DNA of 64,000 nt from an uncultured delta proteobacterium (GTDB taxonomy: Bacteria > Myxococcota_A > Polyangia > Polyangiales > Polyangiaceae): the NCBI GenBank assembly GCA_963782055.1, contig CAWAIF010000003.1, positions 3,520,001 to 3,584,000 on the forward strand. The letters are read 5' to 3'. The notes under the pieces were generated by a model. It ran no database searches and was not told the DNA's origin. It worked only from the letters and a program-made list of their open reading frames with translations. This document shows, in pieces, positions 27,038 to 38,739 of this stretch (the first letter of the stretch is position 1; each line of letters begins with the position of its first letter). A program made the position numbers and the translations under genes.

Positions 27038-28021
27038 CTACTTGCAGGTGTCGTCGGTGCCCAGGGCGTTGGACTGGCACCCGTTGGGGCACGCGTCCTT
27101 CTGCGGCACGCCGCCGGAGCACTTGTAGCGAGCGCTCCCGCTGCAGGTCCAGTACTGGTTGCCCGCGTACGAGGAGCTGGCGCAGTCCCAGTTGACCGGC
27201 GGAGGCGGCGGGGGAGGCGGGGTCTTGCAGGTGTCGTCGGTGCCGACGGCGTTGGACTGGCAGCCGTCGGGGCAGGCCTCGACCTCCGCCACGCCGCCGG
27301 AGCACCTGTAGCGAGCGCTCCCGCTGCAGGTCCAGTACTGGTTGCCCGCGTACGAGGAGCTGGCGCAGTCCCAGCTCACCCCGCCGCCGCCCGCGTCGGT
27401 GTCGCCGCCGCCGCCCTGATTCTGGCCGCCGCCGTTGGCCTTCGCGTGCGCCCAGCCCTGCGGCACCCAGTTGCCCCAGCGCGCGCCGATCTTCCCGTTG
27501 GCGTAGGTGAGGGTGGCCTTGCCGCTGCCCTTCACGTTCTGCTCCAGGATGTCGATGGAGCTCGCGTGCACCGCGGTGACGAGCGCCACGTGCCCGTAGG
27601 CGCCGTTCGGCCACACGATCATGTCGCCAGCGACCGGCGGGTGCGCCTTGTCGCCGTTGTAGTAGACGTCCACCGAGTCCTTCGGCGCGCCGGCGAGCAG
27701 CGTCTTGGCGTTGCCGTACCAGCGCAGGCCCCAGTGCGTCTTGAAGTGGCGCATCACCAGCTCCACGCACTGGTAGCGCAGGCCGTAGGAGCCGCCGCCG
27801 GCGCAGGAGACGCCGGTGCCGGTGTTGGCCCCGTTGGAGTACGCCGTCGTGCCGTCGAAGGTGCCGAGCGCGGTGCCGCAGGCGGGCATCGTCAGCGCCT
27901 CGGAGGCGGAGGGGTTGCTGGCCGAGGTGTCCTCGCCGTCCACACCGGCGCTGCAGCCTGAGATCACGGCGAGCGCGAGCGAGCCGGCGGCGACGAGTCC
28001 AAGGAGGGGAAGGCGCGCCAT
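27038..28021 (-). CDS. CHAP-domain lipoprotein with two Cys-rich C-terminal repeats
   Basis: YQCVELVMR (Cys), YGHVALV (His), ILEQN; lipobox ISGC. Confidence 0.88.
   Translation of the reverse strand: MARLPLLGLVAAGSLALAVISGCSAGVDGEDTSASNPSASEALTMPACGTALGTFDGTTAYSNGANTGTGVSCAGGGSYGLRYQCVELVMRHFKTHWGLRWYGNAKTLLAGAPKDSVDVYYNGDKAHPPVAGDMIVWPNGAYGHVALVTAVHASSIDILEQNVKGSGKATLTYANGKIGARWGNWVPQGWAHAKANGGGQNQGGGGDTDAGGGGVSWDCASSSYAGNQYWTCSGSARYRCSGGVAEVEACPDGCQSNAVGTDDTCKTPPPPPPPPVNWDCASSSYAGNQYWTCSGSARYKCSGGVPQKDACPNGCQSNALGTDDTCK
27041..27374. repeat. Direct repeat, two ~151-bp copies (27041-27191 and 27224-27374)
   Basis: Near-identical DNA encoding WDCASSSYAGNQYWTCSGSARYxCSGGV...CPxGCQSNAxGTDDTCK. 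Confidence 0.9.
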
Positions 28022-29549: not shown

Positions 29550-31533
<1,984 letters not shown>

Positions 31534-33130: not shown

Positions 33131-35482
33131 TTGGGGCTTGCCGTGACGCTGACGCACGTGACCGACGACCAGATCCCCGGCCTGGAGGACGACGAGGAGG
33201 GGGCGCGCCTCGTCCGCGAGGAGCTGCGCCTGCTCGCCACCATCCAGCGCGCCCTGGAGGCGGCGCAGAAGGCGTCCAGCACCGCCGGGGAGGGCAGGGC
33301 GCTGGACGACGCGCGCCTGCTCGAGCTGCGCGACGACGTGGCGGTCGCCAAGCCGGAGGACCTGCCCGCGCTCTTCGAGCAGATGCACACCCTCGGCGCG
33401 CTGCGGGCGCAGCGCGGCAAGGGGCAGGCGGGCGCGGTGGACCGGCAGAGCCCGTACTTCGGCCACCTGCGCCTGGTGGAGGACGGCAAGCGGCGCGACG
33501 TGCTCATCGGCTCGCGCAGCTACCTGGACTCCGCCGCCGGGATCCGCATCGTGGACTGGCGCAACGCGCCGGTGAGCAAGATCTACTACCGCTACCAGGA
33601 AGGGGAGGACTACGAGGAGCCCCTCGGCGATCGCATCGTGGAGGGCGTGGTCGCCGCGCGGCGCAGCGTCGCCATCGTCGGCGGGGAGCTGGTCCGCGTC
33701 GCGGGGCCGCAGGGGACCTTCACCCGCAAAGGCGGGCGGTGGCTCCGCGTGGCCACGCAGCACGCGCGCCTGAGCATGGAGAAGCGCGAGCCGAAGGACG
33801 CGCGCCTGGGCATCGGGGCCGACGGGCAGATGCGGCAGGACAAGCACCTGCCGGAGATCGCCGCCATGCTCGACGCGGCGCAGTTCGAGCTCATCGCCCG
33901 CCCCAGCTCCGGGCTGGTGGCCATCCAGGGCAGCGCGGGCAGCGGCAAGACGACGGTCGGGCTGCACCGCGCGGCGTACCTGGCCTTCGCCGACCCGCGG
34001 CGCTTCCGTCCGGACCGCATGCTGATCGTCGTCCCGCACGAGGCGCTGCGCCACTATGTGGGCCGCGTGCTGCCGTCGCTCGGCGTCGAGGGCGTGGCCA
34101 TCACCACCTTCGATCGCTTCGCCCGGAGGGTGATGCCCGGCCTCTTTCCGCGGCTGCCCGGCGCCATCTCCGACGAGACACCGCCGGTCGTTTCCCGCGC
34201 CAAGGCGCACCCGGCGATGCTGCGGGCGATCACCGCGCACCGCGCGCGCGTCGCCGCCTCCCTGGACCAGAAGGTGCGCTCCGCGATGGGCCGCTGGCCG
34301 AACGGCGAGCTGGTGGTGAAGGCGTGGGCTGCCACCGCGGAGCTGGGCGTGCCCGACCTGCGCGTGACTGCGCTGGCGCAGTGGGTGGCGGGCAAGCGCA
34401 AGGTCATCCCGGATCCCCCCTCCGCGCTGCCCGACGTGACGCGCAGCGCGCTGGACAAGCTCGGCCACGACCTGCGCGGCCTCTCCCGCGGGATCGTGGG
34501 CGCGTGGGATGAGCTCACCACCTCCCGCGAGCGCCTGGCGGAGACGTTCGCCGCCATCCCCGGCTTCGGCAAGGGGCAGCTCGATCAGGTGCACGACTGG
34601 TGTGTGCGGCAGGCGCGCGTGCGGGCGGACGGGGAGCGCGACGGCGAGCGCCCCTCGCTGGACCTGGAGGACCACGCCCTGCTGCTGCGCCTCTGGCAGG
34701 CGCTGCGCGGGCCGATCGTCGATCCCGACGGCGCGCCCCTGCGCTTCGCGCACCTGTTCGTGGACGAGGTGCAGGACGTCTCGCCGGTGGCGCTGCGGGT
34801 GCTGCTGGAGCTCGCCGACAAGGACCAGAGCATCACCCTCGCCGGGGACACGGCGCAGCGCATGCTGGACGACGAGGACAGCGGCGGGGAGCTGGACTGG
34901 AACGGCCTGCTGGAGGAGATGGGGCTCCCGCACACCAAGCTGGAGCCCCTGAAGGTGAGCTACCGCTCCACCACCGAGATCACACGCTTCGCGCGGGGCG
35001 TGCTCGGCCCCTACGCGCACGAGGCGGAGCCCATCGCCACGCGGCACGGGCCGCCGGTGGAGCTGTTCGAGTTCGCCTCCCCGGGCGAGGCGGTCGCCTT
35101 CCTCGCGGACGCGCTCAAGCAGCTCGCGCGGGAGGAGCCGCAGGCCAACGTGGCGCTGCTCGCGCGCTTCGGCCCGCAGGCGGACGTGTACTTCGAGGGG
35201 CTCTCGCGCGCGGAGGTGCCCAACGTCCGACGCGTCACCAAGCAGGACTTCACCTGGGAGGCCGGCTTCGACATCACCGACATCCGGCAGACCAAGGGGC
35301 TGGAGTTCGACGAGGTGGTGCTGCTGGAGACCAACGCCTCCTCCTTCCCGGATCGCTCGCAGGCGCGGCACGCGCTGTACGTCGGCGCGACACGCGCGGC
35401 GCACCAGCTCTGGTGCACGACGAGCGAGCGGCCGTCCCCCGTCGTGACGGTGGCGCTGGAGGGTCAGTACTCCGAGACGTAG
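33131..35482 (+). CDS. HelD-like SF1 helicase/ATPase
   Basis: SPYFGHL, DWRNAPVSKIYY, QGSAGSGKTTVGLHRAAYL, VDEVQD, SYRST, KGLEFD, LYVGATRA. Confidence 0.85.
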   Translation: MGLAVTLTHVTDDQIPGLEDDEEGARLVREELRLLATIQRALEAAQKASSTAGEGRALDDARLLELRDDVAVAKPEDLPALFEQMHTLGALRAQRGKGQAGAVDRQSPYFGHLRLVEDGKRRDVLIGSRSYLDSAAGIRIVDWRNAPVSKIYYRYQEGEDYEEPLGDRIVEGVVAARRSVAIVGGELVRVAGPQGTFTRKGGRWLRVATQHARLSMEKREPKDARLGIGADGQMRQDKHLPEIAAMLDAAQFELIARPSSGLVAIQGSAGSGKTTVGLHRAAYLAFADPRRFRPDRMLIVVPHEALRHYVGRVLPSLGVEGVAITTFDRFARRVMPGLFPRLPGAISDETPPVVSRAKAHPAMLRAITAHRARVAASLDQKVRSAMGRWPNGELVVKAWAATAELGVPDLRVTALAQWVAGKRKVIPDPPSALPDVTRSALDKLGHDLRGLSRGIVGAWDELTTSRERLAETFAAIPGFGKGQLDQVHDWCVRQARVRADGERDGERPSLDLEDHALLLRLWQALRGPIVDPDGAPLRFAHLFVDEVQDVSPVALRVLLELADKDQSITLAGDTAQRMLDDEDSGGELDWNGLLEEMGLPHTKLEPLKVSYRSTTEITRFARGVLGPYAHEAEPIATRHGPPVELFEFASPGEAVAFLADALKQLAREEPQANVALLARFGPQADVYFEGLSRAEVPNVRRVTKQDFTWEAGFDITDIRQTKGLEFDEVVLLETNASSFPDRSQARHALYVGATRAAHQLWCTTSERPSPVVTVALEGQYSET

Positions 35483-36084
35483 ACGGCGAGGGTCTTGCCG
35501 CCATCGGCGGAGGCGCCCCAGTCCACGTTGATGGTGACCGTCGCGGGGCCCGCGGCGCAGGTGGCGTCGTAGGCGATCTGCACGCCGCCCACGCCGGGCA
35601 TGCACTCGATGACGAGGCGGTGGGTACCCGGAGGCCCGGCGTCGGCCTCGCCCGCCGAGACGAGCGTGCCGCCGGAGACGCGCGGATCGGCCGGGGCGGC
35701 GGCGGACGCGGATGGGGTCGCCGACGGTGCCGCGGACGGGGACGGAGCGGCCGGCGCCGATGCGGCGCCTGGCGCGGGCGCGGACGCCGACGCCGGCGGC
35801 GCCACCGCCGGCGCGAAGCTGGCCCCCGAAAGGGTGGGGGGCTGGACCGTCACCTCCAGCCGGGTGTGCGCGGCGTCGAGCCACGTCGCCTTCGCCACGA
35901 CGGTGCCGGCGATGCCCGGGCAGCGCGTGGGCGGTGGCATGGGGTCGACCACCGCGTAGCCACCCGTCGTCGAGCTGCAGCGGTTGCAAGCGACCGTGCC
36001 CACGAGCGCGGCGGTGGTCACCAGCCGCTGCATGTGGGCGATGGTCTTTCTCCGCGGGCCGCTGCTCGCCGGCGGGCCCTTCAT
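35464..36084 (-). CDS. Putative lipoprotein with GYAVVDPMP motif (radical-SAM-associated paralog 2)
   Basis: RRKTIAHMQRLVTTAALVGTVAC leader/lipobox; GYAVVDPMPPPTRC; GAGGAG SD. Confidence 0.75.
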   Translation of the reverse strand: MKGPPASSGPRRKTIAHMQRLVTTAALVGTVACNRCSSTTGGYAVVDPMPPPTRCPGIAGTVVAKATWLDAAHTRLEVTVQPPTLSGASFAPAVAPPASASAPAPGAASAPAAPSPSAAPSATPSASAAAPADPRVSGGTLVSAGEADAGPPGTHRLVIECMPGVGGVQIAYDATCAAGPATVTINVDWGASADGGKTLAVYVSEY

Positions 36085-36197
36085 GACTCCTCGCCGGAAC
36101 GGGACGTCGTCGCCGCGAGGGCGCCCACCTCGAGCGCCATCAGCTTGCGCATGTGCCGCAGGGTGGAGCGGCGAGAGCCACTGTCGCGGGGAGACAT
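36081..36197 (-). CDS. 38-aa peptide carrying the shared TLxHMRxL leader motif
   Basis: MSPRDSGSRRSTLRHMRKLMALEVGALAATTSRSGEES; stop overlaps the next ATG (ATGA). Confidence 0.55.
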   Translation of the reverse strand: MSPRDSGSRRSTLRHMRKLMALEVGALAATTSRSGEES

Positions 36198-36208
36198 GCG
36201 CGCTTCAT

Positions 36209-36916
36209 TCAGTAGTCGGAGAGCTGGATGCTCGTCTTGGTGCCAGCAGTGGGGGTGCCTGTCCACTGCACGTTGGCGGTGAGGTGACCGGGGCCGGCGG
36301 AGCACGCCACCCCGGCGGACACGCCGAGCGAGGCGGAGCCGGCGGAGGACGAGGTGGGGCGAAGCCGCAGGATCACGCTGTGCCCGTTGAACTTCGCCCC
36401 GAGCAGGTTGGAGCCCCAGGAGGAGGGCGGCGCGCTCTTGTCGAACTGGGCGCCGTTGGCGCTGCCGAGGGTGATCGTCACCTCCAGATACACGCCGGTC
36501 TTGTCCTTGTGGAAGACGGCGGTGGCCTTCGCCGCGGCGGCGATCCCCGCGCAGCGCGCCGGCGCCGGCATGGGGTCGACCACCGCGTAGCCGGTGGGAG
36601 GCGCTGTGGCCGTCGGCGTGGCGGTCGCGGTGGGCACGGTGTGCTGGTGCGAGGCCATCGGGTTGGTGCCGGGGGTGGTCCCGGCGGCGCCGCCGTCCTC
36701 GGTGGAGGGGGGGATGGTGACGCTCACCGCGTCGGCGTTCTGCCCGGACTCGCGCGAGCACGCGGCCGCGGACACGGCGGCGGCGGTGGCGAGCAGGCGC
36801 CGCATGTGGCCCAGCGTGCGGTCCCGGACCGGCCCGCGCGCGGAGGCCGTGGGGGCGGGGAGCACCTCCGGCATCAACCCCAGCCTTCGCTTCCCGTTGG
36901 CGTTCTTCGTCTGCAT
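36209..36916 (-). CDS. Putative lipoprotein with GYAVVDPMP motif (radical-SAM-associated paralog 1)
   Basis: RDRTLGHMRRLLATAAAVSAAAC leader/lipobox; GYAVVDPMPAPARC; GGGAGA SD. Confidence 0.78.
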   Translation of the reverse strand: MQTKNANGKRRLGLMPEVLPAPTASARGPVRDRTLGHMRRLLATAAAVSAAACSRESGQNADAVSVTIPPSTEDGGAAGTTPGTNPMASHQHTVPTATATPTATAPPTGYAVVDPMPAPARCAGIAAAAKATAVFHKDKTGVYLEVTITLGSANGAQFDKSAPPSSWGSNLLGAKFNGHSVILRLRPTSSSAGSASLGVSAGVACSAGPGHLTANVQWTGTPTAGTKTSIQLSDY

Positions 36917-36936
36917 GTGCGTTCTCCCTGAGCGGG

Positions 36937-38583
36937 TCAGTGCCCCACCGCGATGGCCATGGCGCGCGCGGCCTGCAGCGGCGTGGCGACGCGATCCCCG
37001 ATGTCGGTGAGCGGCTTGCCGCGGCCCAGGCGCGCGTGGATGCGCCGCGCGAGGTCCTGGCAGCGCGCCCGGACGCTCGCCTCGGTGGCGCGCAGGGTGG
37101 GCACCAGCCGCGCGATCAGGGCGCGCTCCTCCTCGTGGGAGCCGTTGCGCTCCACCAGGTCCAGGATGGCCTCCATCGCCACCACGCCGTCGAGCGTCAG
37201 CGTGGCCGTGAGCTCCTTGCCCTCGGCGAGCCACGCCGGGTCGAAGACGTCGGAGTGGAAGTGCCGGGCGACCTCCACGTCGAAGCGCGTGCCCATGATG
37301 CGGTTGGAGAGCGCCTCCGGGCCGAAGTTGCGATCCATGAAGCACTCCATCGCCAGGCTGAAGACGCGCTCCACCTCCGGGCTGCCCAGGTCGTAGTCCC
37401 ACTGCAGGTAGTCGCCGCGCACGCGGTTCTCTGCCTGCATCCGCGCGAGGATCGGGGTGCCGGCGTACAGCTCGACGCGGCCGAAGTTGGACGGATACTC
37501 CGGCGCGTAGCGCAAGAACTCCATGTTCGTCCGGAGGCTCTCCAGCGTCGTGTCCGGGTCGAAGATGAGCATGTTGTAACAGGTGTACAGGTCCAGGCTG
37601 CGCACCAGGTCGATGGCGTCGTGGTTCTGCCGCGACTTCGCCCAGCGCCGCAGCGTGCGCAGGCCCTGGTCGGCGTCCGTCTCGATGCCGATGTAGCAGC
37701 GGATGCAGTGCAGCCGCTCGCACAGGATGCGGAAGACCTCCGGATCGCAGTCGGTGGGCCGCGCCTTGACGACGGTGGCGAAGCGGCCGATGCCGCGCGC
37801 CTCGAGGGCGTCGGCCAGCGCGGTGAAGCGCTCGCGGTTGTGGCGGTGGCCGGGCACGAAGAAGTTGTCGTCGTGGAAGACGAAGATGTCGACGCCGCGC
37901 TCCCGCTGCATCGCGACCATCTCGTCGGCCACCGCGTCGACCTCGCGCACGCGGTAGCGCTTGCCGGGGAGGCTCTGCTCGTGCCACGCGGCGATGCAGC
38001 AGAAGGAGCAGTTGGCGTAGCAGCCGCGGCTGGAGACCAGCGGGGCGATGCCGTGGCCGAAGCACGACGCGGGCTCACCACGGCGGTCGGGCCAGGGCAA
38101 CTTCGATAAGTCGGGCAGGGGCGGATGCTCGGTGATGACGATGCTGCCGTCGTCCGCGCGCAGGGCGAGGCCTGGCAGCTCGCGGTACGACGCGCCCGTC
38201 TCCAGGGCGCGGCAGAGCGCCAGCATCGTCTCCTCCGCTTCCTGCCGCACGACCGTGTCGATCTCCGGGAAGTCGGCCAGGATCTCGGCGGCGGCGAAGG
38301 TGCCGAAGTGGCCGCCCACGGTGATGTGCCCGCGGTAGCCGCCCTCGCGCAGGGCGACGGCGAAGGCCAGGAAGTCCCGGGCGCGCCACTGGAACGCCAG
38401 CGACAGGCCCACCACGAGGGGCGGCTCCGGCGCCTGAAGAATGGCCCGGAGGGCGGGCAGAAAGTCCGCCTCCATGTTGAACGGGACAATCTGCGTCTCG
38501 TAGCCCGCAGGGGCGATCGACGAGGCGATGTACCGCAGGCTCAGGTTCTCCTCGATCTCCGGTCCGACGAGCGCCACCCACAT
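36937..38583 (-). CDS. Cobalamin (B12)-binding-domain radical SAM protein
   Basis: N-terminal B12-binding domain (NLSLRYIAS...ITVGGHFGT...QEAEET); SSRGCYANCSFC (CxxxCxxC); FHDDNF; YIGIET; YAGTP; AAGGAG SD. Confidence 0.92.
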   Translation of the reverse strand: MWVALVGPEIEENLSLRYIASSIAPAGYETQIVPFNMEADFLPALRAILQAPEPPLVVGLSLAFQWRARDFLAFAVALREGGYRGHITVGGHFGTFAAAEILADFPEIDTVVRQEAEETMLALCRALETGASYRELPGLALRADDGSIVITEHPPLPDLSKLPWPDRRGEPASCFGHGIAPLVSSRGCYANCSFCCIAAWHEQSLPGKRYRVREVDAVADEMVAMQRERGVDIFVFHDDNFFVPGHRHNRERFTALADALEARGIGRFATVVKARPTDCDPEVFRILCERLHCIRCYIGIETDADQGLRTLRRWAKSRQNHDAIDLVRSLDLYTCYNMLIFDPDTTLESLRTNMEFLRYAPEYPSNFGRVELYAGTPILARMQAENRVRGDYLQWDYDLGSPEVERVFSLAMECFMDRNFGPEALSNRIMGTRFDVEVARHFHSDVFDPAWLAEGKELTATLTLDGVVAMEAILDLVERNGSHEEERALIARLVPTLRATEASVRARCQDLARRIHARLGRGKPLTDIGDRVATPLQAARAMAIAVGH

Positions 38584-38739
38584 GCTTGCACGGCTCCTTC
38601 GACCCGCATGCGGCGCGGGTCTCCAGGAGGGTACGCGGCACGGCGCGAGGGGCTCTCCTGAAAACGCCATCTGGGCGCGAAATGTGGGCGCACATGTGGG
38701 ACGGCGCTGGCGGCGGCCTTTCCCCCGGCCGAAACAAAA

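Follow-up and report, generated by a model that had tools for sequence, protein, structure and literature searches.

Most characterised class B (cobalamin-binding) radical S-adenosylmethionine (SAM) enzymes are C-methylases; PoyC and the bottromycin methyltransferases, both of this class, methylate Val or Pro of peptides, and OxsB, whose substrate is a nucleotide, and BchE put cobalamin to non-methyl chemistry. Maturation of lipoproteins is known with another class of enzyme: the DAG-RiPPs (DybA/DybH and NedA/NedBC; PNAS 2026, PMC13056109) are hybrids of lipoproteins and peptides that are ribosomally synthesised and modified after translation (RiPPs) with homologues in Myxococcota, and according to the main text of that paper modification before export was shown and cytoplasmic MNIOs are fast enough to precede export. 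The subject of this work is a locus in a 64,000-nucleotide window (the whole stretch of DNA analysed, from contig CAWAIF010000003.1 of an uncultured delta proteobacterium), in which the gene of a class B radical SAM enzyme is followed on the minus strand by those of two small lipoproteins sharing the motif GYAVVDPMP.

We consider it about evenly poised that this locus represents a widespread, undescribed system in which the enzyme gives Asp or Glu residues of exported proteins a new modification at the carbon level. In it, the export signal would double as the leader, bound on the exterior of the B12 domain and without a RiPP recognition element (RRE), and this leader would have arisen when a self-modifying fusion of enzyme, signal and substrate split, one enzyme then serving many tandem and dispersed lipoproteins. 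An earlier note on this DNA had proposed RiPP-like maturation of exported lipoproteins; that idea has a precedent with another enzyme class (PMC13056109) and is refined here, as dispersed, non-lipidated and fused substrates appear to belong to the system too.

The locus and its enzyme

Translation of the minus strand gave, in this order, the radical SAM gene (36937..38583, 548 aa; identified by translation, Pfam, AlphaFold and fold search), lipoprotein 1 (36209..36916, 235 aa), a 38-aa open reading frame (ORF; 36081..36197) and lipoprotein 2 (35464..36084, 206 aa), the ATG of which overlaps the stop of the 38-aa ORF; the compact four-gene operon drawn in the earlier note was borne out. For the enzyme, the ATG at 38583 was preferred to that at 38670 because orthologues align from residue 2-3. 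Lipoprotein 1, described from its translation, an alignment of homologues and a model, comprises a PEVLP segment, a leader/signal helix, a lipobox-type Cys53, a Thr/Ala/Pro-rich tether, GYAVVDPMP (36566..36592; Asp114, codon 36575-36577; translation and motif comparison) and an immunoglobulin (Ig)-like beta-sandwich. Its leader helix, RDRTLGHMRRL (36794..36826; translation, a model helix at 30-48 and the substrate collection below), starts the export signal and is the predicted docking handle. Lipoprotein 2, described from its translation and from orthologues in L001, L007 and L009, carries the leader helix RRKTIAHMQRL (R11-L21; 36022..36054), lipobox-type Cys33, GYAVVDPMP 14 residues further on (35935..35961; Asp47, codon 35944-35946), an Ala/Pro/Ser insert and a C-terminal beta domain; leader and motif were assigned by translation and co-fold.

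Other features listed in the note were likewise present: GYAVVDPMP followed by xPxRCxGIA and a C-terminal CxAGP...NVxW in both lipoproteins, R-x-x-T-[IL]-x-H-M-x-[RK]-L near the N-terminus of all three ORFs after the enzyme gene, and 26 bp of identical DNA at the two motif sites (35936-35961 and 36567-36592), an identity that is exact and extends in neither direction. The note had called the lipoproteins otherwise divergent; beyond the motif they prove to be weak paralogues (tblastn E 2.7e-6). A search of the 7.58-Mb genome in six frames matched the pattern [GYA]x[VI][VI]DP[MLI]P at the two lipoprotein sites only and found T[ILV]xHMx[RK]L 4 times, 3 of them at the locus and 1 in a dispersed paralogue.

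The enzyme consists of a B12 Rossmann domain (residues ~1-130), CxxxCxxC (C188/C192/C195), a barrel extending to ~397 and a C-terminal helical bundle (402-519), and its N-terminus is soluble, with no export signal seen. PF02310 (B12-binding) scored 48.7 bits against a cut-off of 32.1 and PF04055 (radical SAM) was above its cut-off; C188, C192 and C195 are invariant in 138 sequences, the cobalamin base-off motifs G59-x-S61 and G90-G91 are conserved in the family, and both marks of class B (a B12 Rossmann domain with GxS and GG, and the CxxxCxxC core) are present. In the NCBIfam scan the enzyme reached no family cut-off, and all 21 families listed fell below, including the named class B families BchE (the best, 99 versus 481 bits), HpnR (78.5 versus 650), ApyD (74 versus 750), MgmA (53 versus 360), HpnJ, TIGR03975 and CUAEP-tail. 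The AlphaFold model (predicted local distance difference test, pLDDT, 93.9) was nearest in fold to OxsB, MgmA, AprD4, TsrM, CysS and TokK at 14-18% identity, with OxsB (Foldseek E 1.9e-21; VIA Z 23.9, root-mean-square deviation (rmsd) 4.9, 472 aligned) and MgmA (PDB 9ccb; Z 23.9, rmsd 3.6, 379 aligned) tied in Z, and a sequence search of solved structures returned only OxsB (E 3.9e-7) and MgmA, weakly. Co-proximal residues named in PMC9204698 are Asn186 in OxsB, Arg69 in TsrM and Trp76 in TokK. The lower-face cobalamin motif of the present family is G-x-S-x-(A/V/Q)-F-(Q/T), here G59-x-S61-x-A63-F-Q, with Ala63 aligned to Asn186 of OxsB; it is unlike those of OxsB, TsrM and TokK, and the reaction type is therefore not readable from it. 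The genome encodes six B12-binding domains over cut-off, and B12 is probably salvaged, because CobS was not found in this genome.

Substrate proteins and their linkage to the enzyme

An orthologue scan of species genomes returned 24 loci, two of which (L023 and L024, 42% identity) were fused paralogues and were left out, leaving 22; the counts in this section are tallies across related, non-independent genomes. The strict motif, sought up to 4.5 kb downstream or 1.5 kb upstream of the enzyme, was found beside it in 19 of the 22 (56-86% identity). Two further loci, L019 (VVDPVP) and L022 (GCDPLP), have motif variants that a looser pattern, drawn up once the loci had been inspected, does match, and the flank of L003 is only 37 bp long; among loci with flank, a motif gene was present in 21/21 (19 strict). 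In the reverse direction the motif pattern matched 160 metagenome stretches, of which 70 were confirmed, corresponding to 69 loci, and the enzyme was encoded at 34/69 of these overall (most contigs being short), at 21/24 with at least 1.5 kb upstream and at 14/16 with at least 2.5 kb.

Among 201 family genomes the lipoprotein profile was detected in 28 and the enzyme (E up to 1e-140) in 30: both in 26, the enzyme only in 4, a substrate hit only in 2 and neither in 169. All 25 family genomes with an enzyme at least 66% identical contained a substrate. The enzymes of the four enzyme-only genomes are 48-52% identical, and in two of these genomes (G428 and G489) a small lipoprotein with two VVCDPMP repeats is encoded next to the enzyme. 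One substrate-only hit (G418) was a low-complexity lipoprotein without the motif and was rejected. Among 401 phylum genomes the five strong substrate hits were the five with an enzyme identity of at least 59%, two of which are in the substrate profile by construction; weak hits in G191 and G314 look like non-coding frames and were discarded. The co-occurrence anticipated in the note was seen in both directions and in the genome survey, and of the two outcomes it had named as contrary, orthologues mostly lacking motif neighbours and a motif widespread without the enzyme, neither was observed.

By pattern, 101 distinct genes with leader and motif were gathered. Their consensus leader, R-x-R-T-L-x-H-M-x-R-L, is followed directly by an Ala-rich hydrophobic stretch and is read as the start of a lipoprotein-type signal peptide, because in 89/101 a Cys, mostly preceded by A/G/S, follows 17-30 residues after the first leader Arg (by pattern only); the motif lies 6 to 84 residues after this Cys. 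Most of the remaining 12 lack a lipobox Cys and resemble ordinary secreted proteins, several of them with RG(G)CGC at the C-terminus. Proteins of the non-lipobox type ending in RG(G)CGC(H/R/S)K, with no membrane segment after the tail, were seen in L001, L007, L009, L056, L058, L088, L102 and L122, and this tail recalls the myxobacterial GGCGC sorting motif. A conserved MPEVLP segment precedes the leader in 43/101 substrates, typically in the first gene after the enzyme (lipoprotein 1 residues 15-20, window 36857-36874).

Homologues of lipoprotein 1 (81 matches) have R31, Y110, V112, D114, P115, P117, P119, C122 and C205 invariant in 44 aligned sequences, and the domain after the motif is modelled as an Ig-like beta-sandwich with the invariant Cys122 and Cys205, for which the fold search gave generic Ig-like matches only (best Z 6.9). 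The small proteins had no match in Pfam or NCBIfam and no usable Atlas hit. In L017, L018, L170 and L171 a low-complexity tail with a second motif takes the place of the beta domain, and L001 has seven motif genes in tandem. Two dispersed paralogues in the same genome (C3:1661425-1662147 and C3:4420238-4420834) keep the leader and have the motif MMGSDPVPPP; the variant motif carried by the dispersed lipoproteins is HPMMGSDPVPPP, and the second of them is shorter and may be truncated. In G523, ten substrate-profile matches were spread over several contigs. The genome also encodes three copies of Lgt and two of LspA. In L162, L030 and the fused proteins P0090 and P0118 the motif Asp stands immediately after the lipobox Cys. 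Asp at this position (+2) is an inner-membrane retention signal of the Lol pathway, and modification of the +2 Asp could alter lipoprotein sorting.

The 38-aa ORF contains neither the motif nor a lipobox Cys. A full-length form of this gene type, with GYxVVDPxP, no lipobox and a C-terminal RG(G)CGC tail, occurs in the same operon of L001, L007, L009, L056 and L058 (HMRKLMA...AATT-SR here versus HLRKLMA...AATT-RT in L007). From its translation and this comparison with relatives, the ORF is read as the leader-only, N-terminal stump of a longer substrate-type gene; it was rejected as a functional peptide substrate, having no motif and being such a stump.

Related enzymes carry motifs of this kind in their own C-terminal tails. 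A paralogue in the same genome (C3:3161625-3163556, L139; 43% identity) is a single polypeptide of enzyme, basic stretch, hydrophobic stretch, TAC and five DPLP/DPVP-type repeats. The best 150 representatives were surveyed for fusions; 135 could be anchored and 95 had long tails, with a lipobox-like segment in 59/95 and a D[PMA][LVMPIA]P (D-type) or E[MAR][AVIP]P (E-type) motif in 65/95. D-type motifs numbered 109 versus 18.9 +/- 4.4 in shuffled tails and E-type motifs 94 versus 10.8 +/- 3.1 (200 shuffles), and the spacings DxP, DxxxP, ExP and ExxxP were not enriched in the same tails. The leader pattern was found in 0/95 fused linkers. In a FastTree tree the 19 stand-alone orthologues form a single clade (support 0.987), and whether a tail is D- or E-type follows the enzyme clade, with 6 changes on 61 tips versus at least 11 in 1000 shuffles (kin share labels). 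These patterns suggest that related enzymes have their substrate fused behind an internal signal and that the split clade uses a leader, with which one enzyme can serve genes both in tandem and dispersed. The C-terminus of stand-alone enzymes is a conserved DxVATPLQ within a low-confidence tail (window ~36962-36985), and enzymes of a sister clade (L170 and L171) end in CDHAP, itself a D-type motif.

Docking, target residue and proposed mechanism

For co-folding, enzyme residues 1-530, lipoprotein 2 residues 5-62, 4Fe-4S and SAM were supplied without cobalamin, in three runs. The score was 0.86 versus 0.16 for the best control, a mark reached by 116/157 solved and 2/215 mismatched pairs, counts that are only roughly applicable here; contacts agreed between runs to at least 58%, and the partner's pLDDT was 60 or higher. 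Recall of a close solved complex is unlikely, because the search of solved structures gave only OxsB and MgmA, weakly. Leader residues R11, T14, H17, M18 and L21 were placed on enzyme residues 41, 69-77, 104-105 and 392-393. The interface also holds lipoprotein 2 residues 42-56 and enzyme barrel and bundle residues 172-181, 235, 271, 295-297, 335-341, 366-372 and 408-434; we read these as paired, which would put the motif in the barrel near R295 and R369. Both Arg are 96-100% conserved in all enzyme classes and could clamp the carboxylate of the motif Asp in this model.

In stand-alone enzymes the leader patch is hydrophobic and conserved (F41 95%, L72 100%, A73 100%, V/M76 95%, F105 95%), and in fused enzymes it is mixed, often polar or charged; median sharing was 0.22 for patch columns and 0.62 for the remaining conserved ones (p 0.018 over 6 sites, a weak result). 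Of the 25 columns best separating D- from E-clades, listed before the co-fold, 9 were among 30 presumed motif contacts, with ~1.6 expected. Co-fold and conservation together support the prediction that the enzyme binds a conserved N-terminal handle. The note had named HMxRL as the leader recognised by the enzyme, and the co-fold does place the HMxRL helix on the B12-domain patch; the leader stands as a predicted docking handle, with the refinement that it is the start of the export signal itself.

The motif was compared position by position, the acidic residue being position 0. With position 0 open and the flanks fixed, Glu was found in 36/36 H..xM[AVI]P sites and 53/54 xMAP sites, and D-context sites had Asp in 34/45 and Glu in 3/45. 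With +3 open, Pro was found in 36/52 E-type and 35/37 D-type sites; in H..EM[AVIM] sites +3 was Ala or Met in 16/52, and EM[AVIM] without Pro(+3) was itself enriched (32 versus 7.2 shuffled). Positions +1 and -1 vary freely. Stand-alone variants such as CDPAP, CDPTP, CDHAP, GSDPVGP (L182) and CADPAF (within SCADPAF, L032) keep Asp and lose Tyr, Val and sometimes Pro(+3); for this reason the acidic residue (D-P/M-x-P or E-M-A-P) is taken as the family-constant anchor and best candidate for the target, and in D-type motifs the chief alternative is Pro(+3). Val was rejected as target, being absent from CDPAP, GSDPV, PPDPLP and EMAP variants, and PoyC-type Val methylation is unlikely because Val is dispensable. 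The VVDPMP segment proposed in the note as the site of modification is placed in the barrel by the co-fold, although its Val is not the conserved anchor.

That the enzyme acts on this motif we regard as highly probable, and we hold with similar confidence that modification takes place in the cytoplasm before export. In the mechanism we propose, a dedicated cytoplasmic cobalamin-radical SAM maturase would modify exported proteins before they leave the cell. The unfolded precursor would dock by its RxRTxxHMxRL helix on a hydrophobic patch at the outside of the B12 domain (F41, L72, A73, V76, A77 and F105, with D104 near the leader Arg), as the co-fold suggests, and no RRE or partner gene would be needed; Pfam and NCBIfam scans of the locus proteins gave no RRE match. 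GYxVVD(P/M)xP would then thread into the barrel, where R295/R369 could hold the Asp carboxylate. From class B precedent we infer that a 5'-deoxyadenosyl radical takes a hydrogen from Asp and methylcobalamin gives a methyl, with an expected product of +14 Da per motif at C-beta or C-alpha, on Glu in EMAP clades. An established pathway, its genes present, would follow: export by Sec, lipidation of the lipobox Cys by Lgt and cleavage by LspA, the last of which would discard the handle to leave a lipoprotein with a modified Pro-rich tether ahead of the Ig-like domain. At a weak guess, the purpose is to stiffen or protect this tether. The full chain, with the methyl on Asp, we hold tentatively, at somewhat less than an even chance.

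Several points weigh against this reading. All support is comparative or modelled; the co-fold lacked cobalamin and leaves unsaid which of the residues is turned towards SAM; the lower-face motif fits neither OxsB (Asn), TsrM (Arg) nor TokK (Trp); and the top structural match, OxsB, is a non-methylase. The patch test is weak, with 6 sites, and surface residues drift anyway, and the D/E column overlap rests on non-independent clades. The tail patterns were written after the tails had been inspected, and 30/95 long tails have neither pattern. L108, L112 and L115 have a motif gene but no enzyme next to it, the enzymes of G439 and G442 yielded no neighbouring substrate, no enzyme was found in G433 (84% complete), which has a motif-like lipoprotein, or in G289, which has a GVVEPMP lipoprotein, and the search profiles were built partly from sequences of the genomes counted. 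In D-type motifs, finally, Pro(+3) is about as constant as Asp.

This last point bears on an explanation that keeps the same system and docking and makes the acidic residue only a recognition anchor, the methyl going to a neighbour, likeliest Pro(+3) (as 3-methylproline in bottromycin) or else +1 or -1. Precedents exist in bottromycin and polytheonamide, where class B enzymes put methyl groups on Pro and Val, and Pro(+3) is present in 35/37 D-context fused-tail sites and nearly all stand-alone motifs inspected; on the other hand, the E-type sites with Ala or Met at +3 and the enrichment of EM[AVIM] without Pro(+3) count against Pro(+3), GSDPVGP and SCADPAF keep Asp and lose it, and the free variation at +1 and -1 tells against those positions, and we regard this explanation as unlikely. 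To a like degree we doubt that the motif is the site of chemistry other than methylation, such as a radical decarboxylation, backbone rearrangement or cross-link at Asp/Glu in the manner of OxsB or BchE. These are the best structural and best sub-threshold NCBIfam matches, a TokK-type Trp is found at neither diagnostic position, and decarboxylation would fit with two Arg holding a carboxylate; yet most characterised class B enzymes C-methylate, and MgmA, which methylates a protein Gln, is equally close in fold. A general Tyr cross-link or splicing was rejected, Tyr being absent from VCDPMP, CDPAP and PPDPLP.

Quite improbable, in our judgement, is that the lipoproteins are partners and not substrates, the motif plugging or regulating an enzyme of a lipid or small molecule (such as a hopanoid methylase-like enzyme) or the tail anchoring it to the membrane. 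Weak NCBIfam similarity to HpnR, HpnJ and BchE, the tails without a motif and a fused signal segment that could act as a membrane anchor are compatible with this, but all such matches are far below cut-off, as with HpnR above, and a lipidated motif sits outside the cytoplasm, away from the Fe-S enzyme. Motifs are moreover repeated within tails and over up to seven tandem genes, motif type tracks enzyme clade (with the caveat on shared labels given above), and no pathway gene recurs in 34 loci besides a HelD-like helicase (14). Methylation of the acidic residue is kept as our preferred, tentative reading.

The HelD-like RNA polymerase recycling helicase at window 33131-35482 (plus strand; NF041464, 161 versus 419 bits) is convergent with the operon; such a gene is adjacent in 14/34 loci, and BamB-like gene clusters occur in 5 of the 34. 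No third gene besides the HelD-like helicase recurs in these loci, nor does any protease, transporter or RRE gene, and flanking genes were rejected as parts of the system. A promoter/terminator scan of the locus found none and is uninformative at this GC content. A look-up of sequencing runs listed none of RNA for this genome and DNA runs with small shares of it only. Elsewhere in the window are a secreted protein whose N-terminal part looks CHAP-like by eye, with two Cys-rich repeats at the C-terminus (27038-28021, minus strand), and a GroES/GroEL pair, the GroEL with a long GGM tail (29550-31533, plus strand).

Comparison with described systems

If the proposed reading is true, the system would bring a third enzyme class, after MNIOs and SPASM enzymes, to RiPP-like lipoprotein maturation, and may provide genetically encoded C-methyl-Asp/Glu, or a newer residue, in proteins. 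The cobalamin domain would be a leader-binding site, and a signal peptide would double as maturase leader, which the main text of the DAG-RiPP paper does not lead one to expect (PMC13056109). The natural series of fused versus split enzymes and of Asp versus Glu clades makes enzyme-substrate co-evolution directly testable, and protein engineering might be able to use the two-part tag, an 11-residue handle and a short motif spaced 6 to 84 residues from the Cys, as a portable element. What this work newly contributes is an analysis of the D/E anchor, a model of where on the B12 domain the leader sits, along with the clade-specific conservation of that site, and the status of the 38-aa ORF. A full-text literature search, in which subscription journals were mostly outside coverage and supplements were excluded, found no description of the system.

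The same genome encodes two TIGR04133-like radical SAM enzymes (C3:2322916-2326935, L190, and C3:5943527-5947537, L191; 157 bits versus a cut-off of 425). Flanking them are small lipoproteins that carry CxxCxRH...CPFC at the N-terminus and YG(G/A)P or PPPYG motifs, in some cases repeated. The design is the same, with a radical enzyme, a handle ahead of the signal and a Pro-rich target, but the enzyme class is another and possibly splicease-like.

OxsB (PDB 5ul2-5ul4) resembles the present enzyme as its top sequence and structure match, the C-terminal helix bundle included, and differs in an extra N-terminal domain, a nucleotide substrate and Asn186 in place of Ala63. MgmA/QCMT (acting on Gln of MCR), ApyD, TsrM, PoyC and the bottromycin methyltransferases share the B12 domain, radical SAM barrel, C-terminal helical domain and GxS and GG motifs. 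These peptide- and protein-acting class B enzymes are 16-18% identical to the present one, which differs in that its putative substrates are exported lipoproteins with an acidic motif, the substrate being fused in most paralogues.

The radical SAM/lipoprotein pairs of TIGR04133/TIGR04134 and the spliceases likewise pair a radical SAM gene with neighbouring small proteins that share a short conserved target motif, but, as described in PMC10849128 and PMC11626197, their enzymes have SPASM clusters and no B12 domain, and tyramine is excised at YG. Here TIGR04133 did not match the enzyme, TIGR04134 matched 0/44 aligned lipoproteins at E up to 0.01, a Pfam scan of the enzyme gave no SPASM domain, and only 34% of 109 stand-alone motifs have Gly directly after Tyr, unlike the splicease XYG target. 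The DAG-RiPPs come close in plan: a signal-peptide-free cytoplasmic maturase acts on a conserved motif of a signal peptidase II or I (SPII/SPI) precursor, which is then exported and lipidated (PMC13056109). Their maturase is an MNIO (DUF692) acting on the Cys motifs CPxCGxG and EGKCG, whereas ours is a B12-radical SAM enzyme with an acidic motif; their precursors are expected to be leader-independent, whereas ours have a conserved handle in the signal peptide; and the main text of that paper contains none of the terms radical, rSAM, cobalamin, B12 or fused (PMC13056109). A lipoprotein signal with lipobox Cys is shared by pattern in 89/101 genes here, and an MNIO maturase with a Cys motif is not part of the present system. 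By analogy, the system would work like the DAG-RiPPs and the radical SAM/lipoprotein systems, while the enzyme and motif tests place it in neither.

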